A stretch of 64,000 nt of DNA, taken from Candidatus Omnitrophota bacterium (GTDB lineage: Bacteria > Omnitrophota > Gorgyraeia > Zapsychrales > Fredricksoniimonadaceae). Under the pieces are notes generated by a model. It did not search any database, was not told the DNA's origin, and worked only from the letters and a program-made list of their open reading frames with translations. Every line of letters starts with the position of its first letter. Positions within the stretch are counted from its first letter, which is position 1. The position numbers and the translations under genes are program-made. The stretch lies in the NCBI GenBank assembly GCA_903908245.1, contig CAIVRE010000009.1, positions 677-64,676 of the forward strand, in the 5' to 3' direction. Below are positions 2,781-50,683 of the stretch, one piece after another.

Positions 2781-2978
2781 TCAGGGTGTAACAAAAAAAG
2801 CCGAAAACTCAACAGGATCCATAAATGGCTGCAGGCTGATGATCTGGATGTCGAACCCCCGGAATAACTGAAGAGCCTGGGATGCGCGCATCGGCGAGAG
2901 ATGATCCAGGTCCCCGGAGACCCCATGATCCGGCTCAAAACGGATCTTGCGGGCCGTATCCGAAAGATCAACGCCGCC
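2781..2978 (-). other. Conserved C-terminal family module (~65 aa) of giant protein A
   Basis: GGVDLSD...L..LQ.F.GF...I.SLQPF is similar to the GGIDL...FNID..L..LQD..GFSPVI..I.P tails of the other three paralogs. Confidence 0.6.
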
Positions 2979-5900
2979 ATTCTCGTTTTGCGCGGCATTA
3001 TCCTGCGATGGATTATTGATCATTGCCAACCGTGAAAGGATCTGCTTGCGCAACGGGGTCATCCTAAAATTCTTTCTGGCGGAGATCTGACCGTATAAAC
3101 TTCTAAGCTGCTTCATATATACTGCGGGGTCAATAAATTCTTTTGCAGCACGCAATACTTCGATCTTCTTTTGGATCGCCTCAACCTCGGTTGCATACTG
3201 AAGATATTGCTGCGCCAGACCCGCGAGGACCGGGTCGCTTTCGGATGCCCGCCCGGAAACTTTCTTCGCAAACTCTTCTGTCCGCACAAAAACCTGACTA
3301 TTGACCTTTCGGATCTGTTTCCTGTGCATTTCAGGGATACTGGCCCCTTTTTCACCGCGTAATCCCTCGGCCATCTTTGTCAACACCCCGATCTCCGTCG
3401 CATATTCAGAATATTCTTGTGTCAGGCCCGAAACGACCGGATCATCCTTTGATCCCTGCCCCGCCGGAAGTTCTTCCTCCTGTTCAGACACCTTCACTTC
3501 CCCTCCCTGCGGCACACTCTCTGCCACAACAATGGGCTCTGCATTAGGGCCCACAACTTCCAATATCGGTCGTTTTTCGGGCAACGGCACCCCCGACAAC
3601 CATGGAAGGGACGTGGGGGATCCCCCCGCACCCAGGCCCAACAACCTGTTAACGGCCTCCACGTCCTGCGTTCCATTAATATGGATCAGCAATGCATCCC
3701 CCGGGTACGGCAGGGCAGCGTTAACCGTAAGGCTGTCCGGCACATTGCGCCTCTTGGCCTGGGAAAGCATTAGATAGAACGACCGGAAAAGATCAAAGGC
3801 GTCTGCCCTCTCACCCTCCTCATAATTATTTTGAATATCTGCCCATTCAGTCCGGATCTCGGGATAATCCTTGCTGATCTCACTTTCAGGTTTTACAAAA
3901 ACATTAAGGATATCATTAGTAAAATTAAGATACTTGAGCTGGCCGGCCAAACCCGTCTTTTTACCCAGTTGATCCAACAGATCGGTCACGGTCGCCACAA
4001 CCCTTGGCCCAAGGATCATAACGCCCGTTAATGCCGGGAACTGCTTCAACGTGTTATTCTTCAGATCATATTTCTCACGCAAATACTGTAATATTTTGCT
4101 GGGATGCACACTTTTCTCTTGATTTTCCTGCAACCGCCCAATATCCAGCTTCTCCAGGATCTCCCTGACGGGAGGCCGTGTCCGGGTAACATCAATATTA
4201 AGAAGGCCAAGGCCCTTTAACGCCTGCCCATCCACCCAATTGCCCAATAATCCGATATCCGTGCCCTCGAATCCCTGCATGGGGCCGAAATAGGCATCGC
4301 GGCTATAGATCAAAATGTGCCCGCCCCGTTCCGCCCCATGGCCAGGCCGCACCGGCTGCGAGGACGACTCGGAACACGGCCCGTTCATACACGCAGAAGT
4401 GCGATAACCGTTGATGACAGACCAGTCCAGGACACTGTCACTGCGCAACTCCCGGCTGCCGGCAAAAACAAACATCACTTTCAGATCACTCCACGGGATA
4501 CCCTTCAGATACGGATACCTGTCTGTAAAATCACTGTCCTGCAATCGGCTTTGAACAAACTGCACGGCCTCCAAATACGCATTCCCGCTTCCCTTTAATT
4601 GCGCAGGCAATACTTCAACCGGGACATCTTCCCTGAAAATACTTCCGCGACGGGAATCAACATACTGCTTAAGGCTGTCAACATCATCCGCATCCGGGTT
4701 CTCGGGAAGGATAACAAGCATGTCAATGCTTCTTTCATTCTCCGGCGCGATCTCCCAGCGCAGCTTCTTCATCCCGTCTTTCACGGCCAACTGAACACTA
4801 TTCTCATCGGAGCTGTTTAGCACACCAGCCGCAACCGATGCCCCCAACCTTCCACGCAGATCGGATACAAGTTTGTCGGTAACGCTCTTCATGGTCTTGC
4901 TCCACGACATTTGCATGATATTCGCATGCGGCACCCAGAAAATACCCATGCTGATCGCAACCGCCGCAATCCCTGCCAGAGATAACCCCATTGTCCCGGT
5001 CACACCGAACAAGACCATCACACCAAAGATCGTAAACCCGAAAGGCACTGAAAACAGCCGCAACCGGCTTATAAAACTGCGCATTTTATGATTATTCCGT
5101 GCCGTCAGCGACCCAAGGGAAGTTAAATTACTGGCATTCTTTATAACAGCCGACAATACACTTTTGCTCTGTTGCTCAATGTCCCCCGGATCCCCATAAA
5201 AAGACGGCATCAGGGTGTTGCCCTGCCGCAACAGGTCTGGCACCTCTTTCTTGATCTGTCGTTCAGACCTGGTCAACTGATAACTGTATAAAAGAGCCCA
5301 CCGCATAAATGGATAGATCTTGAAGCGCTCGGCCCAATGATCGTCCGCAAATTTATAATTCATTACTTTGTCTATGATCCCCCGATACTCCAGGATCCGC
5401 AAATACGTGGTGACATATTCCATCATTCGCGCCAGCGTCTCCGCATCGCCCAATAATTTCTGCTTCTGGTAATCATCCAAAGACGCATCATCCCTTTGAA
5501 GAAGATCATTCATGGCATTGATCGTGTCAATGGCCAGCAGATTAAAATGGCTCAACACCACCTGGTATCGTTCATTGAGGATCGGGTCGGACCCCTGCCT
5601 CAACATCAGTTCGGGAGTATACGGAGTCTTGCGAAGGATATCAAAAGCGCTGTTGAGAATAGCGTTAAGATCACTTAAAACAGCCTGCGGGCCTGGCTGA
5701 ACATGCCTCCATTGGGACACAAGAGTTCTCCAGCTCTGTAACGGCTTGATGACCGCCTCGTCAAGGCCCCTGTTCGGAATGATGACCACATCCGACGACA
5801 ATCCCTGGATATTAACCTTTCCATTCCCGTTGCCGCTTTCTGCAGCAAATTCCTGACGCAGCTCGCGGATCATGTCGCCGGTCTTGGCCATTTTTCTTAG

Positions 5901-8900
5901 GATATCTTTACGGATCTTCTTCGCGCCAACCCAGAAAAGAAGACCGCCGACCAGCGCCAGAACAAGTTGTGACGCCACGGTAAGCCTTGGAAAACCCTGA
6001 TCATTGCCGCTGATAACTCCGGAAAATTTATCCCTCAACCCGACAATGTCCCTGACCATATTGTTCGTTGTTTTATCTCCACGGGCACTTAACTGATCCA
6101 GATATTCATTCACTTCCTGCGGATCATTTGCAGATCCGATCCTTTGCTTTAACTCACGGATCAGGGCCTGTTCACGGGGCGTATAGGCTGCCTGGCCCGA
6201 TAACCAACGCATCTGATGATTTGCCCTCTCGGCGATCAGGTCCAACGCCAGACGCGTTGCTTCCACCTTGATCTGCTGCATACGAGGAGCCTCACCTCGC
6301 GGGTCGCTCGCCGCATGCAGTTCCGGCAGAGTATACGTTCCGAGACGGACGTTCAAAAGCCCTTTCTCACCGACGCGATCCGCCATCTTTTCCATGGCAT
6401 GCCTGTAAACATCATTAGAAGCCGGATTATCAACGGCCTGCACATCCGCACGCAAAATATCGACCCAATGACGGCTGTCCACCAGGTCTAAAAGCCCTTT
6501 ATCATTTGAACCGGCATAAACCTGCAACGCCATCATCCGTCCGAGAGCGGTCGTCATCAAACGGTCCAGGGCCATACCCCTCAGCGATGTCTGTGATCGA
6601 AGGATACGTGCGAGCTCGGGGATATTATTCGTCCGGGCGATCTGCCTCTTCTGATCCTCCAGGTTAAGTCCATTAAAATACGCCAACGACGACGTCCCCT
6701 GCCCCCCTGCCGCCGTAATGCCGCTTAAAAATGGATCCAACCCTGTTGCCGCACGACCATTCAATGAAACGAGTGTTCCCGCGGCGATCTTCGCCCTTTC
6801 GTATAATGCCGGTGCAATAAAATCCTTCATCTCTCTCCATCTTGGAGAAGTCATTAAAAACCGGCGGTCAGCGGAACTCCATTCCCGCAGCATCACCAAG
6901 GCACGAAGGTCCTTGTCAAAAACAACCGACGAAAGATTGGCGAATGGCCCGGGGTAAAAAACATCTTCCATATTGCCCAAAGCCTCGCGCCTCAGGATCT
7001 CGTCATAGATCAGGACGGCCAGGCCTTGCGGTACCGATCCCGCCTGGCCTTTAAGGGTGTTATAAGTTTGCGCCAACTGATCCGATGTCCAGTAATCACT
7101 CTGCAACAAGCGCGACCTGGCAACGGAATCTTCCGGCGCCCAGGAGAGGAAAGCCAACAAGGCACGACGGCCCGCACCTGACTGACCCTGTCCGGCCAAT
7201 TGCCCAACAGCACCGGGATCCTGGATGAGGATATCACTTAACATTTCAAAACCAACCCCTGCGACACCAGGTTTTCGCTGATCAATGGCCTTCTCGATCA
7301 CCTGCGTCAGGAACCGCACATCATGACCGTCCCGGTTGACCGCGAACTGCAAAAGATTTACCACCACTTCAGAGTAGGGCGAATTAAGAACGGCCTGTTC
7401 AATGCCGGACAGAGATCTCCGGTCATTCGAAAGCTCCTCTGTCAGGAGCTTCATCGCCTCTGCCCGGGCCCTGATATTGGAGTCCTGTGTCAGGATCCCT
7501 ACGGCGATATCGATCTGAGCTTGCCGTGGATCTCCGGCTTCCGGGTTACTCATCAAAGCCCATAAATTCGATCCGCTCTTCCCGTCCGAAACCCCCGGTA
7601 CGGGGTAGATCACTGCTCCGGCGGATAATACCCCGGGATCCTGACGCTTTGAATTCAGCCCCTGCTGCCCTGGACCGAAGCCGGACAGATCAAGGGTCAA
7701 TTGCCCTTCTCCAATATCTCCCGCGAACACACTGCCACCGGCAACGGCTGAAACAAGCTGTGGGGCGAACGCAGCCGCTCTTGTCCTCGACGGCCTCACC
7801 AGAGACTGGTCCTGTTTCATTACCTGGATCCGCCCCAAACGGGCCTCAGCCTTGAAATATTCCGCTTTAAGGTCGATCAGCCGTTCAAAGGCCTTTGCCA
7901 TCCGCTGATGCTCGTCGACCAGTTGATCTTTCCTGTAAAGATCCGGCCGTCCGGCTTTCTCCTGCCACGCGTTCAAGGCAGCCTTATGCTCGGCCTCTCC
8001 CTGTTCGATCTGACGGCTCAAGTCCCTGATCTCCGACACGGCTTTAGTGAATGCCTCACCAAGCTCTGCCTTGACGGTATCCAAATGAAGCTGGACCTTC
8101 GCCCTTTCCAAAAGCACGATCTCCTTGCGCGCATCCCTGCCGGAATCAAAGATAGGAAGTTCAAAATGTAGCGCCCCGTTGCCTCCTGTTGTCAAAGAAC
8201 TTGTCCTCATCTTTGACCCGGGAGAAAGATCATACAACGGATTGACCGCCTGCCCCTGGGATCCGGAAATGAAGAGCCCCGTCAGGTCCGCTGTCGGCAA
8301 ATATTCCGACCCCTGCAACTTGATCGTTTCTTCCACGGCAGCCCGGGCAACCTGCGCCCCCCGCAGCCGGTAATTGGGGCTGCCCTCTCCTGTCAATTGG
8401 TGCCGCAAGGACTCCTGTTGATCAGCGGCAATCGCCAGGAATTCTCCATCCCACAATAATTTCGGGGAAATATCCTCCTGCAATCTTTCAGCGGGCCGGC
8501 CCAGCATCTGGTTAAGCTCGATCGTCGATTGTTTCTTCTTGTTCTGCCAGCTCAACAGCTGCGCACGGAATTCGCCGGTCTGCTGGGCCAGAACATTAAG
8601 GTCAGAGGTAGTAGCAAAACCTCCCGCCTCCCTGGCCTTAAGCCCTTTTTGCGCCTCTTCCAGATCGGCAACCAGCGCCTGAAGCTGAACAATATGCTGT
8701 TGGGCACGTCCGATCTCAACGAACAGGGCCGTTGCATCGTTGACCTGTCCGGCAACCGCATCTTCCATATGATGCTGGGCGATCTGGGTCATTTTTAACG
8801 CCAGCGCTTTCTCTTTTAATTTCTTCCCTGAAACGACATCCATGATCTCGCCGGCCACACTAAATACAATCGGAGAAGCCGCGGCAATAGCATTACCGGT

Positions 8901-11900
8901 CGAAACACCGGCCATGACATCGTCAAAAACACCATTAAGCCCGCCGCTGAACGCCAGCTTGCCATTGTTGTTCACAAAAACACCGGCCTGTAAAGCCAGG
9001 CGGGAACTCCCCGACAAACGCTCCGACGCCTTGCTCTTAAGAACATCAATGGTCAACTCACCATTAAGAAAATTGTTCCCTGAGACCCGTGCAACCACCT
9101 CCGTAATATTCAAGTTCGCCGCGGGTTGAACAGGCAACCGCAGGAGAGCCTCCCCCATCTGCACAGGCAAAGGTTTAACCCCGGCCTCAGACGATCGAAA
9201 GACCAGCCGCGGATCCATTTGAGCCAGAACACCGTCTTGCTGTCTTGCAGTATTGATCCGGTCCTGTTCCGACTTCCCCAACGCTGCCAGAATAACGGGG
9301 CTTTCCGCCTCTGTCGGCACAATAATCTGAACCGGCAGGTTGACCCACAAAACGCCGTTCCTGTCTCCATCTACGATGACCGCGACAGCCTTGACAGGCC
9401 CGAGATCGATTTCCCGTCCCACAGGGGCCTCATTGACAGCAGATACCCTTCCCGCCAGGCGTTCACCGGACGGCGCCTGAACAAGAACGGGGTCTCCAAT
9501 TCCGAGCTTCACATCCTTCGGCAACAAGATAGCCGTATTCATATCATTAATATCACCGACCGTAACACGGCCTGTTCTTACCCTCAGAAGTTCGTCCCCT
9601 TTGGAGAATGATGACGAATGTTCCGAAAGGATCCCTGTAACAACGCCGCTTTCCGTCGCCACGACCCGAAGGCGGGATATCTGCCCCTGAAGCGTCAATA
9701 TCTGCGCCCGTAACGACGCCCTTCTGGCCTCTAACTCCGCCTCCTGGCCGCGAAGAGTATGCCGGACACCCGACCCATCCGGCCCGGCTTGCGCAAGCTG
9801 AGCCTGAATGCTGTTAAAAGCCTTGACCGCACCGCGATATTCCTCAAAGTATGATCCCTCCACAACCTCGGCGACTACCTGACCGGCCTCAACCCTGTCC
9901 CCCTCTTTAACAAAAAATTTTACAGGTCCGCGCGCGGGAGCTACCATGACCCGCTCTTCCAGCTTACGGACCATCGCAAGTGTCTGCGCCTGTCCACGAA
10001 CAGCATCAAAATTGGCCTGCGTCTTCAGCGGCGGAAATATTTCAGCCTCCACCTGAACCGTACTGTTCGGCGGGATCATCGAAGAAGTTGTAACAAGGAA
10101 CGAAACGATCGCCCCGGTCTTTTTCGGATTGAGCTGCCAATCAACGCTCACAATATTCTTGACCGGCTGGCCATCGATCCTGAAATTACGGATACGGCCA
10201 AAATATGTCTGAGTCACCGGGATCTCGATATTCAAACGAGCCCTTTGTCCGTAATAGTAACTGACGATATCCACACCCTTGTTCACCGTCATTCCATTAG
10301 CCACCAGAACCTCTTTAATGGAAAGGTCACACGGGGCTTTAACGGCTTCAACAGAACCCTTCTGATCAGCCTGGGCCAACTGCCTGCGAAGCTCATTGAT
10401 CCTTTCTTCCACCGGGGTGAGCTCTGCGACCGTCGCCCCGCCTTGAGCCTGCAGTCCCTTCAAAACCCTGTAGGTCCCTTCTTCGATAACCAACCGCCTG
10501 GCCAATCCTTCCCGTTGCTGCACTCTCTCAGGATCGATCAACGAAAAGATAATGTCTCCCTGCTTGTACTGTCCCTTGCTCTGGTCAAGGCCAAGGACAA
10601 TACCGCCAACCTGGGCCGTCAAACCAGCCTCGTCAAGGACAAGAGGGGTCTTCGCCGAGATCACATACGGCTTCACAAAGGCCATTTCTGCCTCGACCAT
10701 CTTGGCCACTCCGGCATCGGCATACTTTTGATCCGCAACACGGATAGCGGGTGACACCTCGACTGCGGGAGGATATTTGATCGGGACAGCCTTGGAGCTT
10801 GCCTCAGGAGCCGGAACAGCGGCAGGCACGAACAGTTTCTTGACGATCGTTCCATCCGATCGAGGATGAACATCGTGTTTTTCAACATTGTTCCCGCCAG
10901 GAAGGCCATATGACACAAAAGTGCCGGCCGGAAAGATCGTATAAATACCCTTACCTCCCTCATAACCTACCAGCAGCTTCGTGCTTTTCGTCAACGGGAT
11001 AAATCCCTGGATGTCAAGGTCCGCAACGATCGTCTCTTCTCCGGTCTCCCTGTTTATAAGAGTACCCGAAGCAACCGATCGCGTTTTGGTTCCCTGATGA
11101 AGTTCTGCATCCTGTCCTGGCTGCTCCAACACGATCGGTGTCACGCGCTCAACAATGGCGGGATGCGCCGGCCCAGGCAATGGATCATTACCGGTTATTG
11201 TACACCCGGAAGAAGTACACAATCCAGCCGACGCGGCGAGAACCAACAATAACTTTCTTGATACACCCTTTGGAAGCAAAGAGAACTTTAAACGAAAGAA
11301 ATTGCTGACCGGCAGGACTGTTTTACCAGAGAAGAACGAAACAGGCCGGAACTGGATCTTTTGCGCTGCATCTTCGAATGAAAACCCACCCGAAAAATAC
11401 CGCCTGGGCACTGCCTCCTGCTGACCGGGGTCATACTCCTCCCGGATCATGTCGTAAGCGCCCTGCTTGAGCGCCAGCATATACTGTTCATAGATACGCT
11501 GACTTGCGCCCCTGTCTTTTGTATCAATACCCGCTATTTTCTTCCGGCCAGCGTATATTTGATTAACAATATTGCTCTTAAGCTGGCGCTTGAACCAGAT
11601 CGCCAGTATCAATGCGTGATACATTTGACGCAACTGGGCGAACTGCGGGCCATCGTTCACTTCCCGTTCGATCTCCGGGATAATGATCTCGCGTGTGATC
11701 GTAGAGCACAATCCATTGATCTTTTCACGATCGCCGGCGGGTACCGCATTATCGGGGACGATCTTTTTCATGCTCAAATAGTCTTCATCGAGCAAAACTT
11801 TCAGACGGCTCCCGGAAATGAACGCAGCCCCATCTTTCTCATAAACAACAGCACTCTCGGGGATCACCCATACCTTGTTAACGGAATTCAGGGGGACATC

Positions 11901-12449
11901 AACATTGCCATATTGCTGCCTGATCTTTATGTAAACCTGTTCCCAGAATTTCTTTCCCAGTTCGTGCTCGGGATTGGTCATCGAAGCGGCGATCTGTTTC
12001 AGGAAGTAATCCTGTGTCAGCATGTCCTTCCCCGCCGTTGTCGCGCCAAAGACCGGATTGACGATACGGTCCGGCTCGGCCGGAGAAAGGTTGACCCAAA
12101 GGTCCTTTGCGGGAAATGTCAGGAACGTAAGAAAATATTTTATAAGCGACCTGGACTGTTCCTCATCCACTTGCGCATGACTCCCGGCATCAACGACAAA
12201 ATTGATCTTGAACGGGTCATTGGGATCAAGTGAGATGGCTTTGAGATTGGGGATAAAAGACGGGGGTGCTATGGATAATTCCACTCCTGGCGGAGGCGCC
12301 ATCACAATGCTTTGCGCGTGTGCCTCCCGAACACCCAGGATATCAAAAGAATAAACAAGCAATAACGCCCAGATCATACATTGGAACCATGGGCGCCCCC
12401 TTAAGGCAAGTGAAGGATTCAGTTTTCTCTCTCGGGTCAATTGACGCAT
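2781..12449 (-). CDS. Giant secreted multidomain protein, paralog A (3222 aa). N-terminal family module, internal signal/lipobox-like segment, two HlyD-type membrane-fusion modules, TolC-like outer-membrane-factor module, 3 predicted TM helices, family C-terminal module
   Basis: Uninterrupted 9.7 kb ORF. N-terminal module aa ~46-355 is homologous to the three other giant ORFs (DPFKINF, DLWVNLSP, GKKFW, LRQMY, PRRYFSGG). Real start may be the internal Met at ~12377 (MIWALLLVYSF...AHAQ signal peptide). Confidence 0.9.
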   Translation of the reverse strand: MRQLTRERKLNPSLALRGRPWFQCMIWALLLVYSFDILGVREAHAQSIVMAPPPGVELSIAPPSFIPNLKAISLDPNDPFKINFVVDAGSHAQVDEEQSRSLIKYFLTFLTFPAKDLWVNLSPAEPDRIVNPVFGATTAGKDMLTQDYFLKQIAASMTNPEHELGKKFWEQVYIKIRQQYGNVDVPLNSVNKVWVIPESAVVYEKDGAAFISGSRLKVLLDEDYLSMKKIVPDNAVPAGDREKINGLCSTITREIIIPEIEREVNDGPQFAQLRQMYHALILAIWFKRQLKSNIVNQIYAGRKKIAGIDTKDRGASQRIYEQYMLALKQGAYDMIREEYDPGQQEAVPRRYFSGGFSFEDAAQKIQFRPVSFFSGKTVLPVSNFFRLKFSLLPKGVSRKLLLVLAASAGLCTSSGCTITGNDPLPGPAHPAIVERVTPIVLEQPGQDAELHQGTKTRSVASGTLINRETGEETIVADLDIQGFIPLTKSTKLLVGYEGGKGIYTIFPAGTFVSYGLPGGNNVEKHDVHPRSDGTIVKKLFVPAAVPAPEASSKAVPIKYPPAVEVSPAIRVADQKYADAGVAKMVEAEMAFVKPYVISAKTPLVLDEAGLTAQVGGIVLGLDQSKGQYKQGDIIFSLIDPERVQQREGLARRLVIEEGTYRVLKGLQAQGGATVAELTPVEERINELRRQLAQADQKGSVEAVKAPCDLSIKEVLVANGMTVNKGVDIVSYYYGQRARLNIEIPVTQTYFGRIRNFRIDGQPVKNIVSVDWQLNPKKTGAIVSFLVTTSSMIPPNSTVQVEAEIFPPLKTQANFDAVRGQAQTLAMVRKLEERVMVAPARGPVKFFVKEGDRVEAGQVVAEVVEGSYFEEYRGAVKAFNSIQAQLAQAGPDGSGVRHTLRGQEAELEARRASLRAQILTLQGQISRLRVVATESGVVTGILSEHSSSFSKGDELLRVRTGRVTVGDINDMNTAILLPKDVKLGIGDPVLVQAPSGERLAGRVSAVNEAPVGREIDLGPVKAVAVIVDGDRNGVLWVNLPVQIIVPTEAESPVILAALGKSEQDRINTARQQDGVLAQMDPRLVFRSSEAGVKPLPVQMGEALLRLPVQPAANLNITEVVARVSGNNFLNGELTIDVLKSKASERLSGSSRLALQAGVFVNNNGKLAFSGGLNGVFDDVMAGVSTGNAIAAASPIVFSVAGEIMDVVSGKKLKEKALALKMTQIAQHHMEDAVAGQVNDATALFVEIGRAQQHIVQLQALVADLEEAQKGLKAREAGGFATTSDLNVLAQQTGEFRAQLLSWQNKKKQSTIELNQMLGRPAERLQEDISPKLLWDGEFLAIAADQQESLRHQLTGEGSPNYRLRGAQVARAAVEETIKLQGSEYLPTADLTGLFISGSQGQAVNPLYDLSPGSKMRTSSLTTGGNGALHFELPIFDSGRDARKEIVLLERAKVQLHLDTVKAELGEAFTKAVSEIRDLSRQIEQGEAEHKAALNAWQEKAGRPDLYRKDQLVDEHQRMAKAFERLIDLKAEYFKAEARLGRIQVMKQDQSLVRPSRTRAAAFAPQLVSAVAGGSVFAGDIGEGQLTLDLSGFGPGQQGLNSKRQDPGVLSAGAVIYPVPGVSDGKSGSNLWALMSNPEAGDPRQAQIDIAVGILTQDSNIRARAEAMKLLTEELSNDRRSLSGIEQAVLNSPYSEVVVNLLQFAVNRDGHDVRFLTQVIEKAIDQRKPGVAGVGFEMLSDILIQDPGAVGQLAGQGQSGAGRRALLAFLSWAPEDSVARSRLLQSDYWTSDQLAQTYNTLKGQAGSVPQGLAVLIYDEILRREALGNMEDVFYPGPFANLSSVVFDKDLRALVMLREWSSADRRFLMTSPRWREMKDFIAPALYERAKIAAGTLVSLNGRAATGLDPFLSGITAAGGQGTSSLAYFNGLNLEDQKRQIARTNNIPELARILRSQTSLRGMALDRLMTTALGRMMALQVYAGSNDKGLLDLVDSRHWVDILRADVQAVDNPASNDVYRHAMEKMADRVGEKGLLNVRLGTYTLPELHAASDPRGEAPRMQQIKVEATRLALDLIAERANHQMRWLSGQAAYTPREQALIRELKQRIGSANDPQEVNEYLDQLSARGDKTTNNMVRDIVGLRDKFSGVISGNDQGFPRLTVASQLVLALVGGLLFWVGAKKIRKDILRKMAKTGDMIRELRQEFAAESGNGNGKVNIQGLSSDVVIIPNRGLDEAVIKPLQSWRTLVSQWRHVQPGPQAVLSDLNAILNSAFDILRKTPYTPELMLRQGSDPILNERYQVVLSHFNLLAIDTINAMNDLLQRDDASLDDYQKQKLLGDAETLARMMEYVTTYLRILEYRGIIDKVMNYKFADDHWAERFKIYPFMRWALLYSYQLTRSERQIKKEVPDLLRQGNTLMPSFYGDPGDIEQQSKSVLSAVIKNASNLTSLGSLTARNNHKMRSFISRLRLFSVPFGFTIFGVMVLFGVTGTMGLSLAGIAAVAISMGIFWVPHANIMQMSWSKTMKSVTDKLVSDLRGRLGASVAAGVLNSSDENSVQLAVKDGMKKLRWEIAPENERSIDMLVILPENPDADDVDSLKQYVDSRRGSIFREDVPVEVLPAQLKGSGNAYLEAVQFVQSRLQDSDFTDRYPYLKGIPWSDLKVMFVFAGSRELRSDSVLDWSVINGYRTSACMNGPCSESSSQPVRPGHGAERGGHILIYSRDAYFGPMQGFEGTDIGLLGNWVDGQALKGLGLLNIDVTRTRPPVREILEKLDIGRLQENQEKSVHPSKILQYLREKYDLKNNTLKQFPALTGVMILGPRVVATVTDLLDQLGKKTGLAGQLKYLNFTNDILNVFVKPESEISKDYPEIRTEWADIQNNYEEGERADAFDLFRSFYLMLSQAKRRNVPDSLTVNAALPYPGDALLIHINGTQDVEAVNRLLGLGAGGSPTSLPWLSGVPLPEKRPILEVVGPNAEPIVVAESVPQGGEVKVSEQEEELPAGQGSKDDPVVSGLTQEYSEYATEIGVLTKMAEGLRGEKGASIPEMHRKQIRKVNSQVFVRTEEFAKKVSGRASESDPVLAGLAQQYLQYATEVEAIQKKIEVLRAAKEFIDPAVYMKQLRSLYGQISARKNFRMTPLRKQILSRLAMINNPSQDNAAQNENGGVDLSDTARKIRFEPDHGVSGDLDHLSPMRASQALQLFRGFDIQIISLQPFMDPVEFSAFFVTP
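11384..12311 (-). other. Conserved N-terminal family module of giant protein A
   Basis: Aligns by eye with the N-termini of ORFs 15127-17514, 19215-22448 and 50492-55183. Confidence 0.8.
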
Positions 12450-15126: not shown

Positions 15127-15318
15127 TTACTTCTGCTCGTTCAACCCTAAAAACAACCTCAGATCACTCATCGGCTCAATATTGATGATAACCGGCGAAA
15201 AACCCAGAGTGTCCTGAAGTTCCTGTAACTTCACCTGATCAATATTGAACTGCAGCCCATCACCCGAACCTCGTGTTTCCACGCTCAAACGTTCCGCCGT
15301 CAGGTCAATACCACCTTT
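15127..15318 (-). other. Conserved C-terminal family module of paralog B
   Basis: KGGIDLTAERLSVETRGSGDGLQFNIDQVKLQELQDTLGFSPVIINIEPMSDLRLFLG. Confidence 0.7.
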
Positions 15319-17514
15319 GGTGGCGTCCACCTTCCCCTCAGGAACCTTGGGGATCGAAGACTTCTCCAGATACGCGTTCAACGTATTGATCAACCGTTTT
15401 GTCAACGGAGCCAGGGCTGCAGGGCGAACTCCCTCTCTCACAGGCAAAAGCAACTGCCGTCCAACCTTAAAAAAATACTCTTCTATTACTGTCAGGTCTT
15501 CCGATCGGATATATCGCTCAACATCCTGAAGTATCTTTATTCCTTTACCGTCCTTAAAATACGGATGTTCCAACAAGGCATCAAAAAAACAGAAATCATC
15601 TTCGGAAATTGCCCCTTCAGGCAAATCCCTCGCGCCATACTGGGCCAAAAGGATGGCTAAAAACAAAAGCTCATGCCTGGCTGAATCCGGCTCCCCGTTG
15701 ACCGATAAACGCTTGTTGCCAATATCGACCATAATGACTTCCTCTGAAGGCCCCCTGACAATGAAATTCCGGCCATGCATATCCTTCGGCAGGATCCCAT
15801 GCAGGGCTGCTGCAATGGTCAGCAAGGTGCTCGTAACCTTCTTCTTAAGGGTAATGGTCAATTTCTTTTCCTGGGCATATTCTTCGATCGTTCGCCCTTC
15901 GATAAACTCTTCCACATAAACAACCCTGCCGCCTTCAGAAACAAATAACCCGCCCCATTGCGGAACGCCCCGGCCGTTCAATTGCCTCAAATTATTCGTT
16001 TCATGAGACCCTATGTCCTTTTGATTTTTCGCCCTTTTAACGGCCAGAAGAATATAAAAAGACCCGCCTTCTTTTAACGTGAATTGCATTTTGTAAACAT
16101 ATTTAAAAGCCCCTTCACCTGCGAATGAGACCGACACTTTTTCATCCAGATCATCCAGGTGTAAATTCGGGTGCTTGCTGATATTCTTTAGAAATTGCAA
16201 TAAAAGGCTCGGCTTCACCTTCTCGAACATTTCCATGGAAACGCTCAGCATATCGCCATAGATCTCTGTCCTCTTTTGATCTGTCTCCGCTATCAGAGGC
16301 CTCTGCACATCAACCCGAAAATGCGGTGCCTCTGCCCCTGGGTTGACAAGATCGTTTGTCGCCTCTGCCCGGTCAAAGCGTGACTGAACGACAGATAACG
16401 CACCCCGTGAATTCCTGTCATCGATCATGCTGCCGTCCGCAATAACTGTCATTGACAGATCGGTAAGCTGGGAATAATTCACCCCTCCCGAGAAATACTT
16501 CCGCGGGATAAGCTCACCGGAGACCGTATCTTGCTCCTCCTTGATAAGATCATAGGCGCCCTTCTTGAACGCCTCGACATACTGCGCCCAGATCTTCTCC
16601 GACTCCAAAGGATCATTAATATTGACACCCTCGACCTTGTTACGGTCAACATACACCAGGGACAAGACGCTCTGTTTGATCTTTTTCTTGAACCATGCCG
16701 CCAGGATCAACGACTGATAAACCTGACGTAACTTGGCAAAATTCTTCCCCTCATTGACCTCTTTCTCAAGCTCAGGGAGAACGATCGCACGGATCACATT
16801 CTTGGCCAGTTCCTGGGATTCCTTAACGGCTCCGGAAGCTTCACTACCTGCCCCAGTTGTGACCGAATTATTCAAGGCCACATAATCGCTTTCAAGCATG
16901 ACCTTGAGGCGGCTCTCAACCACATACGCCGTCCCGGCCTTGGCATTCTCATAGACCACGGCCTTCCCGGGAATAATCCAGACCTTATTAAACGTATCCA
17001 CCGGGATATCGGTGGTGCCATATTTCTCCTGCGCCTTTTTGTAAACCGCGGCCCAAAACTTTTTGCCTGTTTCGCCCTCGGGATAAATGACGGACGCTGT
17101 GATCTGTTTGAGAAGATAGTCCTGCGCCAAAAGATCCCGGCCCATTTCTGTCCGGCCGAACGCATCCGGCACAATACGGTCTTTTTCATAAGGGCTAAGA
17201 TTCACCCAAAGATCTTTCTCGGGAATAGTCAAAGACGCCATGAAATACCGGATCAGCCGCGCAGACTCCTCTTTGAGCTGATCGGACGAGTCCGGGAAGT
17301 TCCCTTTATCGAGAATAAAATCAAACCGTAATGGATCGGCAGGATAAACCTTGATGCCTTTGAATACCGGCGGCGCAAAAGGCGCGCTTAAAGACACCAT
17401 GGAACCAGGTGCAGGAAGAACAACGCTCTGGGCGTAAGAGGCAGGCACACTCGCGGCCACGAAGGCTATCAGCGTAAACGCTAAAATGAGTCTTTTTAAA
17501 AACCCCTTTATCAT
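15127..17514 (-). CDS. Giant-family secreted protein, paralog B (795 aa): N-terminal family module, protein-kinase-fold domain, C-terminal family module
   Basis: Signal peptide (..AASVPASYAQS); N module aa 31-345; kinase-like region aa ~455-660 (FAGEGAFKYVY, AVKRAK, DMHGRN, VDIG); C module aa 732-795. Confidence 0.9.
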   Translation of the reverse strand: MIKGFLKRLILAFTLIAFVAASVPASYAQSVVLPAPGSMVSLSAPFAPPVFKGIKVYPADPLRFDFILDKGNFPDSSDQLKEESARLIRYFMASLTIPEKDLWVNLSPYEKDRIVPDAFGRTEMGRDLLAQDYLLKQITASVIYPEGETGKKFWAAVYKKAQEKYGTTDIPVDTFNKVWIIPGKAVVYENAKAGTAYVVESRLKVMLESDYVALNNSVTTGAGSEASGAVKESQELAKNVIRAIVLPELEKEVNEGKNFAKLRQVYQSLILAAWFKKKIKQSVLSLVYVDRNKVEGVNINDPLESEKIWAQYVEAFKKGAYDLIKEEQDTVSGELIPRKYFSGGVNYSQLTDLSMTVIADGSMIDDRNSRGALSVVQSRFDRAEATNDLVNPGAEAPHFRVDVQRPLIAETDQKRTEIYGDMLSVSMEMFEKVKPSLLLQFLKNISKHPNLHLDDLDEKVSVSFAGEGAFKYVYKMQFTLKEGGSFYILLAVKRAKNQKDIGSHETNNLRQLNGRGVPQWGGLFVSEGGRVVYVEEFIEGRTIEEYAQEKKLTITLKKKVTSTLLTIAAALHGILPKDMHGRNFIVRGPSEEVIMVDIGNKRLSVNGEPDSARHELLFLAILLAQYGARDLPEGAISEDDFCFFDALLEHPYFKDGKGIKILQDVERYIRSEDLTVIEEYFFKVGRQLLLPVREGVRPAALAPLTKRLINTLNAYLEKSSIPKVPEGKVDATKGGIDLTAERLSVETRGSGDGLQFNIDQVKLQELQDTLGFSPVIINIEPMSDLRLFLGLNEQK
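16479..17421 (-). other. Conserved N-terminal family module of paralog B
   Basis: About 70 percent identical by eye to the paralog C module; motifs YPADPLRFDF, DLWVNLSPYEKDRIVP, EMGRDLLAQDYLLKQ, GKKFW, TTDIPVDTFNKVWIIP, RLKVMLESDY, LRQVYQSLILAAWFKKK, PRKYFSGG. Confidence 0.85.
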
Positions 17515-19214: not shown

Positions 19215-19418
19215 TTACAGACCGCCTGCGGCGTTCGGCTGAATTCCCAGGAACTGTTGTAAACTTTCCGCCGGAAGTATCGACATGATCACCGGGGAAA
19301 ATCCTTCCGCGTCCTGCAGTCGCTGAAGCATGACCGGATCGATATTAAATGTAATCTCCCCGCCCTGATTGCGCACCACCAACCCCAGCTTGTCCGCGTT
19401 AAGATCGATACCACCTTT
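19215..19418 (-). other. Conserved C-terminal family module of paralog C
   Basis: KGGIDLNADKLGLVVRNQGGEITFNIDPVMLQRLQDAEGFSPVIMSILPAESLQQFLG. Confidence 0.7.
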
Positions 19419-22400
19419 GGTGTCTCCTGTTGGCAAATGCCCGACAGGCACCGCACTACCAGCCGAAGACAACAAACTATCAGGGACTTGATAATCAGAC
19501 CGCAAAAGACCCATTGCTTTAAACACATCACAATAAAAACCAACATCCTTATCTGACATGCCGTCAAACATAAAATTCCTTCTTCCCGACCCATAGCCCT
19601 GGAACAACCAAGCCATCACCTCTTTACCCAACCGCTCATCAGACCCGATGGTGCGATTACTGAGAATATCGGCAAGAACATCCCCGTATGTCCCGCTGAT
19701 CCTGTTCTTTAATACCTCCCATTTACCTGCACTCTGAAGTCGTTGTAGCATGTTAAGAACGATTTCCGGGGACTTTTGCTGATAAGCATGCAATAACTCA
19801 TGCAGGATCGACGCCTTTGTCTCTTGTCGAATATATTCTGCAGCGACACGATACGGATCCCTGTTCATCGAACGCGCCTCGAGAGCGATCTTGTCAACAA
19901 CATCGCCCCTCTTATTGATCAACGCAGCGCCTATGGCCATATTCAACATCTGTTCTTTGCTTTTGAAAATAGGGCGGAAACAAATCCCCGTCGCAGGATC
20001 AAAGAAAAAGAACGGGGTTGCGCTCATGTTCAATTGCATGAATGCCCCGCCATTCCCGACAAACGGCGCTTTCTGAAAACTCTCAGGATCTTTGATATTG
20101 ATGCCCAACTTCTCCAACAGATCCCCGAGCACAGGATTGGCAAGCGCCTCTCCACGGGCCTGACGAAGATATTCCTCCTGCCCCTTCTCGCCGAACACAT
20201 CCAAATGCCCTTCAGGGATCTTGTCATTACTGGCAATATAACCGGTCAAGCCATTGCCTTTACTTGCAGGAACTTTTATTGAATTTCCATTAAGTCCATC
20301 GAGAACAGATAAGACGCTCCCCAATTCTTTTGTGATACCCGGGCCCAATTCTCCTCTGTTGTTCGGTGCAAGCGGCGCTCCATCCCGACTAAAAGAACCG
20401 ATCCCCGCAGACTCTCCGGTCCAGCTCACCGCCACTGGCGATCCAAATGCAAGATAATTCTGCAGTCCCGTCATCCCTATAAAAGCCGTACCTTGAGGAG
20501 CCGCCTTCAAACGCTCTCTCAGACCATTCACGGCCGATTTATACTCTTCAATTGTTTGTTGGGCCTCCTTGATCTGCGCATTAATGAACTCAATGAAAGC
20601 CCCCATTCTCGCTTGAACAACATACGGGCGTCCGTCGGGTGTTCGATCGTATTGAAACCCATTCAATAACTGTCCCGTACGTCCCAGGGCTTCCGGACTG
20701 ATCCCGGACTCTAAATAACCTTTGGCCCAATCAAGGAATTTTTGAGACTGAAGCAGATCAACACTCATACTCGACATTTGATGCAAATACCCCCTCACAT
20801 TCCCAACGGGGTCTGCGAGCTCTTCATCAAAAATAACACGCACGGACTTTCCGTTCGATGAAGTGAACCTGAACCCGCCTTGAGTGCTCATCTGCCCATT
20901 GATATCCGCCGATCTTGGCACAAGAATGACCCGCCCACCCATCCGGCGATCAACCTGAAAAGTCACCACAAAGTCACCATCAAAGATCACCCCTGAGAAA
21001 CCATTATTCAAGATCAACTTTGCCTTGTGTCCCGTATATTGAAGCATGTTATCGCCTAAAGTTGCAACAGACAGGGCCCCATCCCTATCCAACTCAACCC
21101 GGTTAAGATACTGATCCCATCCCTCGGATGCTCTGCCATTGGCCCGGAGAACTCCTTCATTAAGACCCCCCTGAAACACGACCCTGTCGCGTGCTATTTC
21201 CTGGCTCCCGGCAACAGCAGCACTTCCAGGATCTTTGGCCGCCTGGACCACCCCAGCAATGCCCGCATTGGCATTATTAAATGTGGTAAGCGTCATCGAG
21301 ACGACCAACATCCCGAGGAATGCCGCCCGCGAGAACCCCCCGGTCATTTGCGCCGGGCTTGCCGTCACATTCAACACCGGCGACATCGCGAAGTTCACTC
21401 CACCCGAGAAATACTTCCGCGGGATCATCTCGTCGGCGTAAACATCCCGTTCTTCTTTGATGTAATTGAACGCACCCTTCTTGAACGCCTCAACGTAACG
21501 ACCCCAGATCTTTTCCGACTCCTTCGGGTCATCAATGTTGACCCCCGCGACCTTTTTCTGGTCGACGTAAACCTTGCTAAGAATGCTCGCCTTCACCTTT
21601 TTCTTATACCAGGCCGCCAGGATCAGCGATTGATACACCTGGCGCAACCGCGTAAAGTTCCTGCCTTCATTGACCTCTTTCTCAAGCAAAGGAAGGACGA
21701 TCTCCCGGATAACATTCTTGGTGAGTTCCTGCGTTTCCGGCACAACACCATTGCCTGAAAGCTCTGGCGCCTTCACCACCGCATTATCCAGCGCAACATA
21801 ATCGCTCTCCAGCATGACCTTGAGCCTGCTGGCAACAACAAAAGCCTTATCCCCGTTCTCAAAGACCTCGGCCTCGGCAGGAACGATCCAGACTTTATTA
21901 AAAGTGTCCACGGGAATGTCCGTTGTGCCGTACTGCTCGGCCGCTCTGCGATAAACCTCGGCCCAGAATTTTTTGCCTGCTTCACTCTCGGGATAAATGG
22001 CGGATGCGGTCACCTGCTTGAGCAAATAGTCCTGCGCCAGAAGATCGCGCCCCATCTCGCTCCGCCCGAATTCATCAGGGATGATGCGGTCTTTCTCGTA
22101 AGGCGAAAGGTTCACCCACAGATCCGTCTCGGGAACGGTCAGGCTGGCCAGAAAATATTTGATCAACCGGTTCGATTCGTCTTTTAATTCAGCACCAGGA
22201 TACACGGAATCACCTTTATCCAGAAGGAACTCGAAGCGGAACGGATCGTCGGGATGGACCTTGATTCCTTTAAGGACAGGCGGATTAAACGTTGAGCTTA
22301 ACTCAACCCGACTACCCGGTGCCGGTAAATACAAGGCACCCTGAGCATATGCATCGGGAACGATCTGGGCAAGGACCAATAAAAAAGAAAGGGCGCTGAC

Positions 22401-22448
22401 TGCGCCCTTTCGAAGAAAGCTGTAAATGCTTCCCGTCTTATTCATCAT
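19215..22448 (-). CDS. Giant-family secreted protein, paralog C (1077 aa): N-terminal family module, hydrophobic segment, beta-rich region, HELLHxxQQ zincin-like motif, C-terminal family module
   Basis: Signal peptide (..VPDAYAQG); N module aa 37-350; HELLH encoded at 19788-19802 (checked at nucleotide level); C module aa 1010-1077. Confidence 0.9.
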   Translation of the reverse strand: MMNKTGSIYSFLRKGAVSALSFLLVLAQIVPDAYAQGALYLPAPGSRVELSSTFNPPVLKGIKVHPDDPFRFEFLLDKGDSVYPGAELKDESNRLIKYFLASLTVPETDLWVNLSPYEKDRIIPDEFGRSEMGRDLLAQDYLLKQVTASAIYPESEAGKKFWAEVYRRAAEQYGTTDIPVDTFNKVWIVPAEAEVFENGDKAFVVASRLKVMLESDYVALDNAVVKAPELSGNGVVPETQELTKNVIREIVLPLLEKEVNEGRNFTRLRQVYQSLILAAWYKKKVKASILSKVYVDQKKVAGVNIDDPKESEKIWGRYVEAFKKGAFNYIKEERDVYADEMIPRKYFSGGVNFAMSPVLNVTASPAQMTGGFSRAAFLGMLVVSMTLTTFNNANAGIAGVVQAAKDPGSAAVAGSQEIARDRVVFQGGLNEGVLRANGRASEGWDQYLNRVELDRDGALSVATLGDNMLQYTGHKAKLILNNGFSGVIFDGDFVVTFQVDRRMGGRVILVPRSADINGQMSTQGGFRFTSSNGKSVRVIFDEELADPVGNVRGYLHQMSSMSVDLLQSQKFLDWAKGYLESGISPEALGRTGQLLNGFQYDRTPDGRPYVVQARMGAFIEFINAQIKEAQQTIEEYKSAVNGLRERLKAAPQGTAFIGMTGLQNYLAFGSPVAVSWTGESAGIGSFSRDGAPLAPNNRGELGPGITKELGSVLSVLDGLNGNSIKVPASKGNGLTGYIASNDKIPEGHLDVFGEKGQEEYLRQARGEALANPVLGDLLEKLGINIKDPESFQKAPFVGNGGAFMQLNMSATPFFFFDPATGICFRPIFKSKEQMLNMAIGAALINKRGDVVDKIALEARSMNRDPYRVAAEYIRQETKASILHELLHAYQQKSPEIVLNMLQRLQSAGKWEVLKNRISGTYGDVLADILSNRTIGSDERLGKEVMAWLFQGYGSGRRNFMFDGMSDKDVGFYCDVFKAMGLLRSDYQVPDSLLSSAGSAVPVGHLPTGDTKGGIDLNADKLGLVVRNQGGEITFNIDPVMLQRLQDAEGFSPVIMSILPAESLQQFLGIQPNAAGGL
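21398..22337 (-). other. Conserved N-terminal family module of paralog C
   Basis: See paralog B; near-identical motif set. Confidence 0.85.
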
Positions 22449-50491: not shown

Positions 50492-50683
50492 TTAATTAAC
50501 GCCCGCTCCAAAGAACCGGGGAAAACTTTCCAACGGCTTTATACTATATATGACAGGGGTCAATCCCGGGGCATCCTGATAAACTTTAAGCTCTTCAGGG
50601 CTGATGTTGAAATAAAAACCACCAGCCTGTCCCTGGACCTTCATATCCATCGTCCCGGCGCCAAGGTCAATACCGCCCTTCTC
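50492..50683 (-). other. Conserved C-terminal family module of paralog D
   Basis: KGGIDLGAGTMDMKVQGQAGGFYFNISPEELKVYQDAPGLTPVIYSIKPLESFPRFFG. Confidence 0.7.

Follow-up and report, generated by a model that had tools for sequence, protein, structure and literature searches.

Architecture of protein B and its kinase motifs

The stretch of DNA analysed here (the window; 64,000 nucleotides of contig CAIVRE010000009.1 from a Candidatus Omnitrophota bacterium) contains four related genes, one of which, paralog B, occupies positions 15127–17514 on the (-) strand and was taken from the list of open reading frames (ORFs). It encodes a protein of 795 amino acids (aa), referred to as protein B. The Omnitrophota, which have not been brought into culture, are abundant nanobacteria that apparently depend on hosts or live as predators. 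The central domain of protein B has the fold and the conserved catalytic residues of a protein kinase, and it is inserted between two conserved end domains behind an N-terminus with the features of a signal peptide. We consider it probable that protein B is a divergent, minimal kinase of the protein kinase-like (PKL) superfamily, likely an active phosphotransferase, which is exported by an Omnitrophota carrier frame and likely acts in or at another cell.

All of the features of protein B lie on the (-) strand. A predicted Sec-type signal peptide (aa 1–28, MIKGFLKRLILAFTLIAFVAASVPASYA, followed by Q; 17431–17514) was recognised by sequence inspection and family conservation. It is followed by a conserved N-terminal "carrier" domain (aa ~31–345; 16480–17424), defined by homologs, invariant columns and AlphaFold2 (AF2) modelling, and by a linker (aa ~346–410; 16285–16479) which is unconserved in the alignments and, as judged also by the predicted local distance difference test (pLDDT), is probably disordered. 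The kinase-like domain, which is the cargo of this protein, spans aa ~411–718 (15361–16284), as delimited by AF2, Foldseek and Protein Data Bank (PDB) profile matches. The protein ends in a conserved C-terminal domain (aa ~733–795; 15130–15318) with the pattern GGIDL...GF.PVII.I.P...L..FLG, which is found in 115 of 120 relatives and was modelled with a pLDDT of 70–82.

An earlier note on this DNA had read a glycine loop FAGEGAFKYVY, an AVKRAK lysine, a DMHGRN catalytic loop and a DIG triplet from the sequence, at a spacing close to that of known kinases. All four are present in the 795-aa ORF at that spacing. The Gly-rich loop (aa 464–474; 16093–16125) aligns to the kinase GxGxxGxV motif, and its residues in protein B are G466-x-G468-x-x-K471-x-V473. 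The AVKRAK stretch (aa 491–496) contains K493 (16036–16038), which aligns to the VAIK lysine and is the equivalent of the beta-3 ATP-binding lysine. The glutamate of helix alpha-C that partners K493 is E505 (16000–16002), which lies inside the model helix 503–512. The catalytic loop P576-K-D578-M-H580-G-R-N583 (15766–15789; DMHGRN, aa 578–583, at 15766–15783) aligns to HRDLxxxN, and D597-I-G599 (15718–15726; VDIG, aa 596–599, at 15718–15729) aligns to DFG and provides the equivalent of its metal-binding aspartate. The distances between these residues are 25 from G468 to K493, 85 from K493 to D578, 5 from D578 to N583 and 14 from N583 to D597.

The motifs were combined in a regular expression (GxG..V, [hydrophobic]xK, Dx4N and D[hydrophobic]G at kinase-like spacings). 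This composite pattern was matched by 3 of 20,000 shuffled versions of protein B, and by none of the other ORFs in the six frames of the window (161 ORFs of >=100 aa). Two antisense ORFs, at 15245–15529 (+) and 15653–15919 (+), of 94 and 88 aa, are present within the kinase-coding region; nothing was found in support of either as a gene. A protein identical to protein B (P0001) is present on 6 metagenome contigs. The guanine-cytosine content at the gene is ~0.50, the same as in the remainder of the window, and a horizontal-transfer island was ruled out for this reason.

Fold and conservation of the kinase-like domain

Scans with the single sequence of protein B gave weak matches, all of them to kinases. 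These included ABC1 in Pfam (E=0.048), MAD6 (8.7e-6), Bud32, LanL and RfaY in NCBIfam, and TNNI3K and GSK3 in the PDB. A word-indexed protein search with the cargo or with the domain alignment gave no matches, the query protein itself included, and an exhaustive HMMER search of 1.84 billion representative proteins was used instead, with the cargo (aa 350–735) as the phmmer query. This search returned 96 clusters (50% identity) at E<=1e-3, 63 of them at E<=1e-10, and the name given by NCBI to these relatives is "hypothetical protein". Family members occur mainly in long Omnitrophota proteins, most of 1,000–7,700 aa. The tail of the match list consisted of bona fide Pfam Pkinase proteins (P0200, 4.8e-48; P0206, 4.4e-49), and a plain sequence search therefore ties the domain directly to Hanks-type kinases.

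When a profile of 37 family sequences was compared with all PDB sequences, the matches were essentially protein kinases only, of which LIMK1 was the best (E=1e-6). The others included CDKL3, Staphylococcus aureus PknB (4eqm), STK24, Rad53 and Mycobacterium tuberculosis PknB. The alignments were in register, with K493 at the VAIK lysine, D578 to N583 at HRDxxxxN and D597 at DFG; K493 was the first aligned profile position facing the N-lobe of LIMK1. A longer family profile gave the same outcome. The alignment of the family with a canonical Pkinase protein by hhalign (probability 95.5%, E=1.5e-8) likewise placed K493 opposite the VAIK lysine.

The domain was modelled separately with AF2 (aa 425–735, 31 homologs), with a pLDDT of 90.6 and a predicted template modelling score (pTM) of 0.90. 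The model comprises an N-terminal helical extension, an N-lobe of five strands with helix alpha-C, a hinge, the catalytic loop, the DIG triplet and an all-helical C-lobe. This model was used to judge the domain in place of the full-length model (59 sequences), in which the kinase region is of low confidence owing to the alignment of non-homologous cargos onto the kinase. Foldseek comparison of the domain model with the PDB gave 1,803 matches at E<=1e-3, and all of the 50 matches listed are protein kinases, at a probability of 1.00. The domain thus has the bilobal fold, the beta-3 lysine with the alpha-C glutamate, and the D-x4-N motif with a DFG-like aspartate by which the PKL superfamily is defined. 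The earlier note had proposed a Hanks-like or atypical kinase fold, and the PDB profile matches, hhalign and the AF2 model with Foldseek all returned kinases and no non-kinase fold. The extent suggested there, aa ~455–660 (15534–16149), was too narrow, the domain reaching from aa ~411 to ~718.

Residue conservation was calculated from 80 aligned homologous copies of the domain. In the Gly-rich loop, 95% of the copies have G468, 94% have K471 and 91% have V473. Conservation is 94% for K493, 96% for E505 and 85–100% for the hinge EEFIxG (aa 535–540; EEFIEG in protein B). The catalytic loop retains P576 in 93%, D578 in 94%, N583 in 94% and H580 in at least 90% of the copies, and the DIG triplet retains D597 in 94% and G599 in 95%. 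Conservation of the Lys/Asp/Asn/Asp quartet, for which the earlier note had suggested a check in orthologs, is therefore 94% at each of its four positions, and with E505 the Lys/Glu/Asp/Asn/Asp set is present in 94–96% of the copies. These five residues are invariant across four full-length relatives. An origin of the motifs by chance was ruled out by the shuffled sequences, the conservation in these copies, the PDB profile matches and the Foldseek results.

A few copies of the domain have lost these residues. P0133 (1555 aa), a protein with the same frame of end domains, contains two tandem copies of the family (aa ~449–665 and ~784–993), both with substitutions of the catalytic Asp, the Asn and the DFG-Asp (e.g. 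PRGIEPFRF, QRIG); these copies look like pseudokinase derivatives by their sequence. As such copies exist, conservation of the catalytic residues is not merely a requirement of the fold, and the fact that protein B and ~94% of the copies keep them argues for catalysis. The set needed for ATP and magnesium binding and for catalysis is complete in protein B (G468/K471, K493, E505, D578, N583 and D597), which points to a domain that is probably active and not a scaffold. On the basis of these residues, the domain is most likely an active ATP-dependent phosphotransferase.

A separate search for loci related to the kinase domain used an alignment of 7 sequences and gave 12 loci, too few for a taxonomic census. 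The nearest genomic relatives of the kinase domain (L003 on JAAYZZ010000232.1, L004, L007 and L010) come from metagenome-assembled genomes (MAGs) that carry the labels Elusimicrobia, "uncultured Planctomycetales" or "uncultured Actinomycetota", and not Omnitrophota. Either the labelling or the binning is questionable (one of the contigs is only 3 kb), or the family extends beyond the phylum.

Comparison with known kinase families

The domain of protein B scored 17.7 bits with PF07714 (PK_Tyr_Ser-Thr), against a gathering threshold of 23.1, and its relatives scored ~16–18 bits with PF00069, against 31.7. With PF03109 (ABC1), the best single Pfam match of protein B, the score was 13.2 bits against 22.9; matches to ABC1 at E<=0.01 (best 1e-4) were also found in 6 of the 37 relatives, over the region of the catalytic loop, all of them below the threshold. 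The Bud32 model NF011460 gave 15.5–18 bits against a cut-off of 199, RIO1 was matched by 1 of the 37 members (E=0.0023), and the MAD6 defence kinase model NF047741 gave 24.5 bits against 460, over ~100 residues of the N-lobe only. The match to LanL in NCBIfam was far under its cut-off. Membership in Pkinase, ABC1, RIO/Bud32 or MAD6 was rejected, as each threshold was missed.

The family also has sequence features of its own. Its Gly-loop consensus is G-x-x-K-x-V-[FY], with an invariant lysine at the usual position of the third glycine, and its catalytic loop reads P-[RK]-D-x-H-x-x-N-F as compared with H-R-D-L-K-x-x-N. The distance from K493 to E505, between beta-3 and alpha-C, is just 12 residues, which is shorter than in Hanks kinases. 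All of the sequence alignments to kinases end ~8–10 residues past the DIG triplet, the next long helix of the AF2 model begins ~10 residues after it, and no APE-like conserved motif was present in the family alignments. The ends of the alignments and the position of the helix indicate that the activation loop, the P+1 loop and the APE motif are all missing from the domain. In this it resembles RIO and Bud32, and its mode of substrate binding would then be unlike that of canonical protein kinases.

The Hanks-type Ser/Thr kinases (PF00069; LIMK1, STK24, PknB 4eqm and M. tuberculosis PknB) share the fold and the catalytic set with the domain in register, provide its best profile and Foldseek matches, and include the Pkinase proteins reached by phmmer. 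However, the domain differs from them in the absence of HRD, the third glycine, the activation segment, P+1 and APE, and its C-lobe after DIG is specific to the family. RIO1/RIO2 and Bud32 (PF01163, NF011460) likewise have a compact core without an activation loop or the canonical substrate-binding subdomains. Their matches to the family were weak (Bud32 E=1e-3; RIO1 in the single member mentioned above) and far below the cut-offs. The Gly-loop of RIO is GxGKES, compared with G-x-x-K-x-V here, and RIO1/RIO2 and Bud32 are cytoplasmic factors of the ribosome or of tRNA modification.

The D-x-H-x-x-N motif of the family resembles the catalytic motif "DPHPGN" of ABC1, a resemblance that serves as a lead and not as a test. 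No structure of ADCK3 was among the PDB profile matches of the family, and the N-terminal KxGQ extension that is specific to ABC1/UbiB/ADCK3 was not identified in the domain. A true ABC1 domain is present besides a domain of the present family in one protein, P0127, and the two families are therefore distinct.

Effector kinases such as YopO/YpkA, LegK1-4, NleH/OspG, SteC and HopBF1 offer a similar concept, a bacterial kinase acting in a foreign cell that contains ATP. There is no specific sequence relationship to them, YopO being a marginal match of the family profile (E=0.096). Type III and type IV secretion system effector kinases use signals without a Sec signal peptide, whereas protein B has a predicted cleavable Sec signal and a frame of N- and C-domains, and no linked secretion system.

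The domain does not belong to the Pkinase, ABC1, RIO, Bud32 or MAD6 families, of which it lacks defining features or misses the thresholds, and it is probably outside the YopO/LegK/NleH-type families too. It is most fittingly regarded as a minimal, new branch within the PKL superfamily, nearest to the Ser/Thr kinases in sequence and similar to RIO/Bud32 in its layout.

Carrier frame, proposed role and genomic setting

The N-terminus of protein B, MIKGFLKR-LILAFTLIAFVAASV-PASYA followed by QS, combines a basic n-region with a hydrophobic core and a small-x-small site (A-x-A before Q), and no second hydrophobic segment was found in the protein by a Kyte-Doolittle scan. A basic n-region and a hydrophobic core are present in 95 of 107 full-length relatives, and a small-x-small site directly ahead of the conserved mature start LPxPG in 102 of the 107. 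The assignment of protein B as a signal-peptide protein in the earlier note thus agrees with the features seen by inspection of the family. The role suggested there, an extracytoplasmic or injected kinase or a small-molecule phosphotransferase, is a prediction from the sequence. The sequence features that mark Sec export (n-region, h-region, cleavage site and no downstream transmembrane segment) are all present, and a lipoprotein was ruled out as Cys is absent after the signal peptide. From these features we infer that protein B is exported across the inner membrane.

The N-domain has more than 3,500 homologs, and those with a named source are from Candidatus Omnitrophota MAGs. It has 45–60 invariant columns, including charged and aromatic stretches such as DLWVNLSPYE, GRDLLAxDYxLKQ, NKVWIxP and IPRKYFSGG, and was modelled by AF2 with a pLDDT of 80–96. 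No match to it was found in Pfam, NCBIfam, the PDB sequences or by Foldseek, and it seems to represent a domain family not yet described. The linker behind it has a pLDDT of <50 at aa 338–419 of the full-length model and no conservation in the alignments.

A census of the best 120 relatives was made for the frame. Both end domains are present in 115 of the 120 (in protein B, aa 31–346 and 731–795), the insert between them ranges from 13 aa to 1,067 aa (median 657), and the median distance from the end of the C-domain to the C-terminus is 7 aa. In P0011 (438 aa) the N- and C-domains are separated by 13 aa, with no cargo. This protein and the C-terminal placement of the C-domain suggest that the ends are the functional frame and the middle an insertion site; the C-domain may be a signal for sorting or secretion.

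The cargos can replace one another within the frame, and most are cytoplasm-type enzymes. Their Pfam domains include Pkinase, RIO1, ABC1, methyltransferases, GNAT, NUDIX, HATPase_c, HAD, PGK, guanylate kinase, PPDK_N, M23 peptidase, TPR and HEAT. The kinase-like family of protein B is carried by 5 of the 120 frame relatives, and other kinase-fold cargos are canonical Pkinase (P0010), a RIO1/Pkinase-type domain (P0083) and ABC1 (P0127). The last of these proteins (2697 aa) contains the kinase-like family at aa 677–926, an M48 peptidase stretch and the true ABC1 domain at aa 2291–2473 (E=9e-16), so that two distinct kinase-fold families are present on one carrier.

In the mechanism that we propose, the Sec signal peptide and the frame would carry the cargo over the inner membrane. 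The kinase would then act where ATP exists, either in the cytoplasm of a foreign cell or in the zone where a host or prey cell is contacted, and would phosphorylate a foreign target there. A site at a foreign cell is proposed because the cargo and many of its sister cargos need cytoplasmic cofactors (ATP, S-adenosylmethionine (SAM), acetyl-CoA), and the periplasm is not known to contain the first of these. The Omnitrophota are described as predatory or host-dependent. In two preprints (bioRxiv 10.1101/2023.11.21.568195; 10.64898/2026.06.07.730766), the prediction of cytoplasm-type enzymes as extracellular in their long proteins is noted as a paradox. Action of the kinase on a foreign cell would be in line with the lifestyle proposed for the phylum and with this puzzle of extracellular enzymes.

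Several observations weigh against this interpretation. The TM-scores of the Foldseek matches are low (0.37–0.47), which means that the C-lobe or the orientation of the lobes differs considerably from the matched kinases; in the model this is consistent with a C-lobe specific to the family. Neither protein B nor its relatives came up to the curated threshold of any kinase family in Pfam or NCBIfam. The signal peptide is a prediction from inspection, the Kyte-Doolittle scan and family conservation. ATP is not known to occur in the bacterial periplasm. No linked translocation or secretion system was seen among the window genes scanned. Finally, the N-domain frame is present in only 12 of 98 proteins with the kinase-like family, the others being long or giant multi-transmembrane proteins, and the family is also found inside proteins of 2,000–7,700 aa. 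As the kinase occurs mostly outside the frame, in other long and giant proteins, it is a shuffled module of the long-protein repertoire of the Omnitrophota.

Alternative roles were considered for the kinase fold. The domain may be a small-molecule phosphotransferase, similar to the APH, Kdo/WaaP or ABC1/UbiB kinases, that modifies a lipid, sugar, antibiotic or envelope precursor in the envelope or on the prey surface. The lack of an activation segment, P+1 and APE, and hence of a canonical peptide-binding groove, would fit this role, as would the conserved D-x-H-x-x-N, which is unlike the D-L-K-x-x-N of Ser/Thr kinases, and the weak matches to ABC1 (in the 6 of 37 relatives noted above) and to WaaY, RfaY and APH(3') (E=0.006–0.02). 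However, the best and most numerous matches in both sequence and structure are protein Ser/Thr kinases, RIO and Bud32 are generally known to act on proteins despite having no activation loop, and the supply of ATP outside the cytoplasm would be equally problematic for a small-molecule kinase. We regard this alternative as unlikely. A use of the fold for something other than phosphotransfer is less likely still. The domain could in that case be a pseudokinase, a binding module or an ATPase switch, or it could transfer nucleotidyl or other groups (SelO-type AMPylation, SidJ-type glutamylation). The kinase fold is generally known to support such chemistries, the Gly-loop has its invariant lysine in place of the third glycine, the C-lobe is family-specific, and degenerate copies such as those of P0133 exist. 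Against this, protein B and nearly all of the copies (94–96%) keep the Lys/Glu/Asp/Asn/Asp set in the canonical register, which is the signature of ordinary phosphotransfer, and there was no indication of a flipped nucleotide.

The alternatives concerning the location of protein B bear on export. Cargos that depend on ATP, SAM and acetyl-CoA fit a cytoplasm best, and topology predictions for long Omnitrophota proteins are reported as unreliable in one preprint (bioRxiv 10.1101/2023.11.21.568195). Protein B might accordingly be retained by an uncleaved anchor, or its start or topology might have been misread, and the kinase would then signal in the cytoplasm of the producer or on the inner side of its membrane. 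However, the basic n-region ahead of the hydrophobic core places the C-terminal part outside by the positive-inside rule, the small-x-small site stands right before the conserved mature N-terminus in nearly all relatives (102 of 107), and protein B has no further transmembrane segment by which the cargo could return to the inside. We therefore consider retention in the producer very improbable. A more far-reaching version of the export reading is that the signal peptide, N-domain and C-domain form an undescribed Sec-dependent delivery frame that moves enzymes into host or prey cells, with protein B as an effector kinase that is translocated and belongs to a new, minimal family. The candidate cargos of such a frame include at least four kinase-fold families, methyltransferases, GNATs and NUDIX hydrolases. 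This version is tentative, and we hold it to be rather doubtful.

Among the closest known systems are the long and giant proteins of the Omnitrophota ("Archaeovorins"), which come from the same phylum, have the same modules (HATPase_c, methyltransferase, GNAT, NUDIX, HAD, PPDK and kinases) and pose the same paradox. In contrast to these, protein B is a small protein. It has a single cargo, a single predicted signal peptide and no transmembrane helices, which makes its topology unambiguous. Neither the kinase-like family nor the frame of N- and C-domains is described in those passages of the two preprints that were searched (10.1101/2023.11.21.568195; 10.64898/2026.06.07.730766), and further searches of the literature turned up no description of them. 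Protein B represents a small and topologically simple case of the puzzle of exported enzymes, with one predicted signal peptide and one ATP-dependent cargo with an intact site, and its simplicity makes the question of whether such an enzyme is really exported, and where it works, directly testable. A fold and catalytic residues are now assigned to ~96 clusters of "hypothetical" proteins. Kinase-fold domains of several families are, furthermore, recurrent cargos of a frame with over 3,500 members, for which Pfam, NCBIfam and the PDB offer no counterpart.

The four frame paralogs of the window, at 2781–12449, 15127–17514, 19215–22448 and 50492–55183, are all on the (-) strand and share the signal peptide and the N-domain of ~315 aa. 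The largest (2781–12449, 3222 aa) contains in its cargo a TolC/OEP-like stretch (PF02321, 25.9 bits, over the cut-off), HlyD/biotin-lipoyl-like stretches and internal hydrophobic helices, and its C-terminus is a diverged C-domain (GGVDL...). In effect, this frame protein incorporates parts like those of efflux or type I secretion systems. Paralog C (19215–22448, 1077 aa) and paralog D (50492–55183, 1563 aa) have cargos that gave no match in Pfam; copies of the C-domain were located by sequence in both, at 19242–19421 and 50507–50686, respectively, on the (-) strand. The neighbours of the protein B gene are housekeeping genes, encoding LpxB (lpxB), NDH-2, a major facilitator superfamily (MFS) transporter, PFOR and RecG (recG). 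Genes for LpxB, FadL and porins are present, which shows that the organism is diderm.

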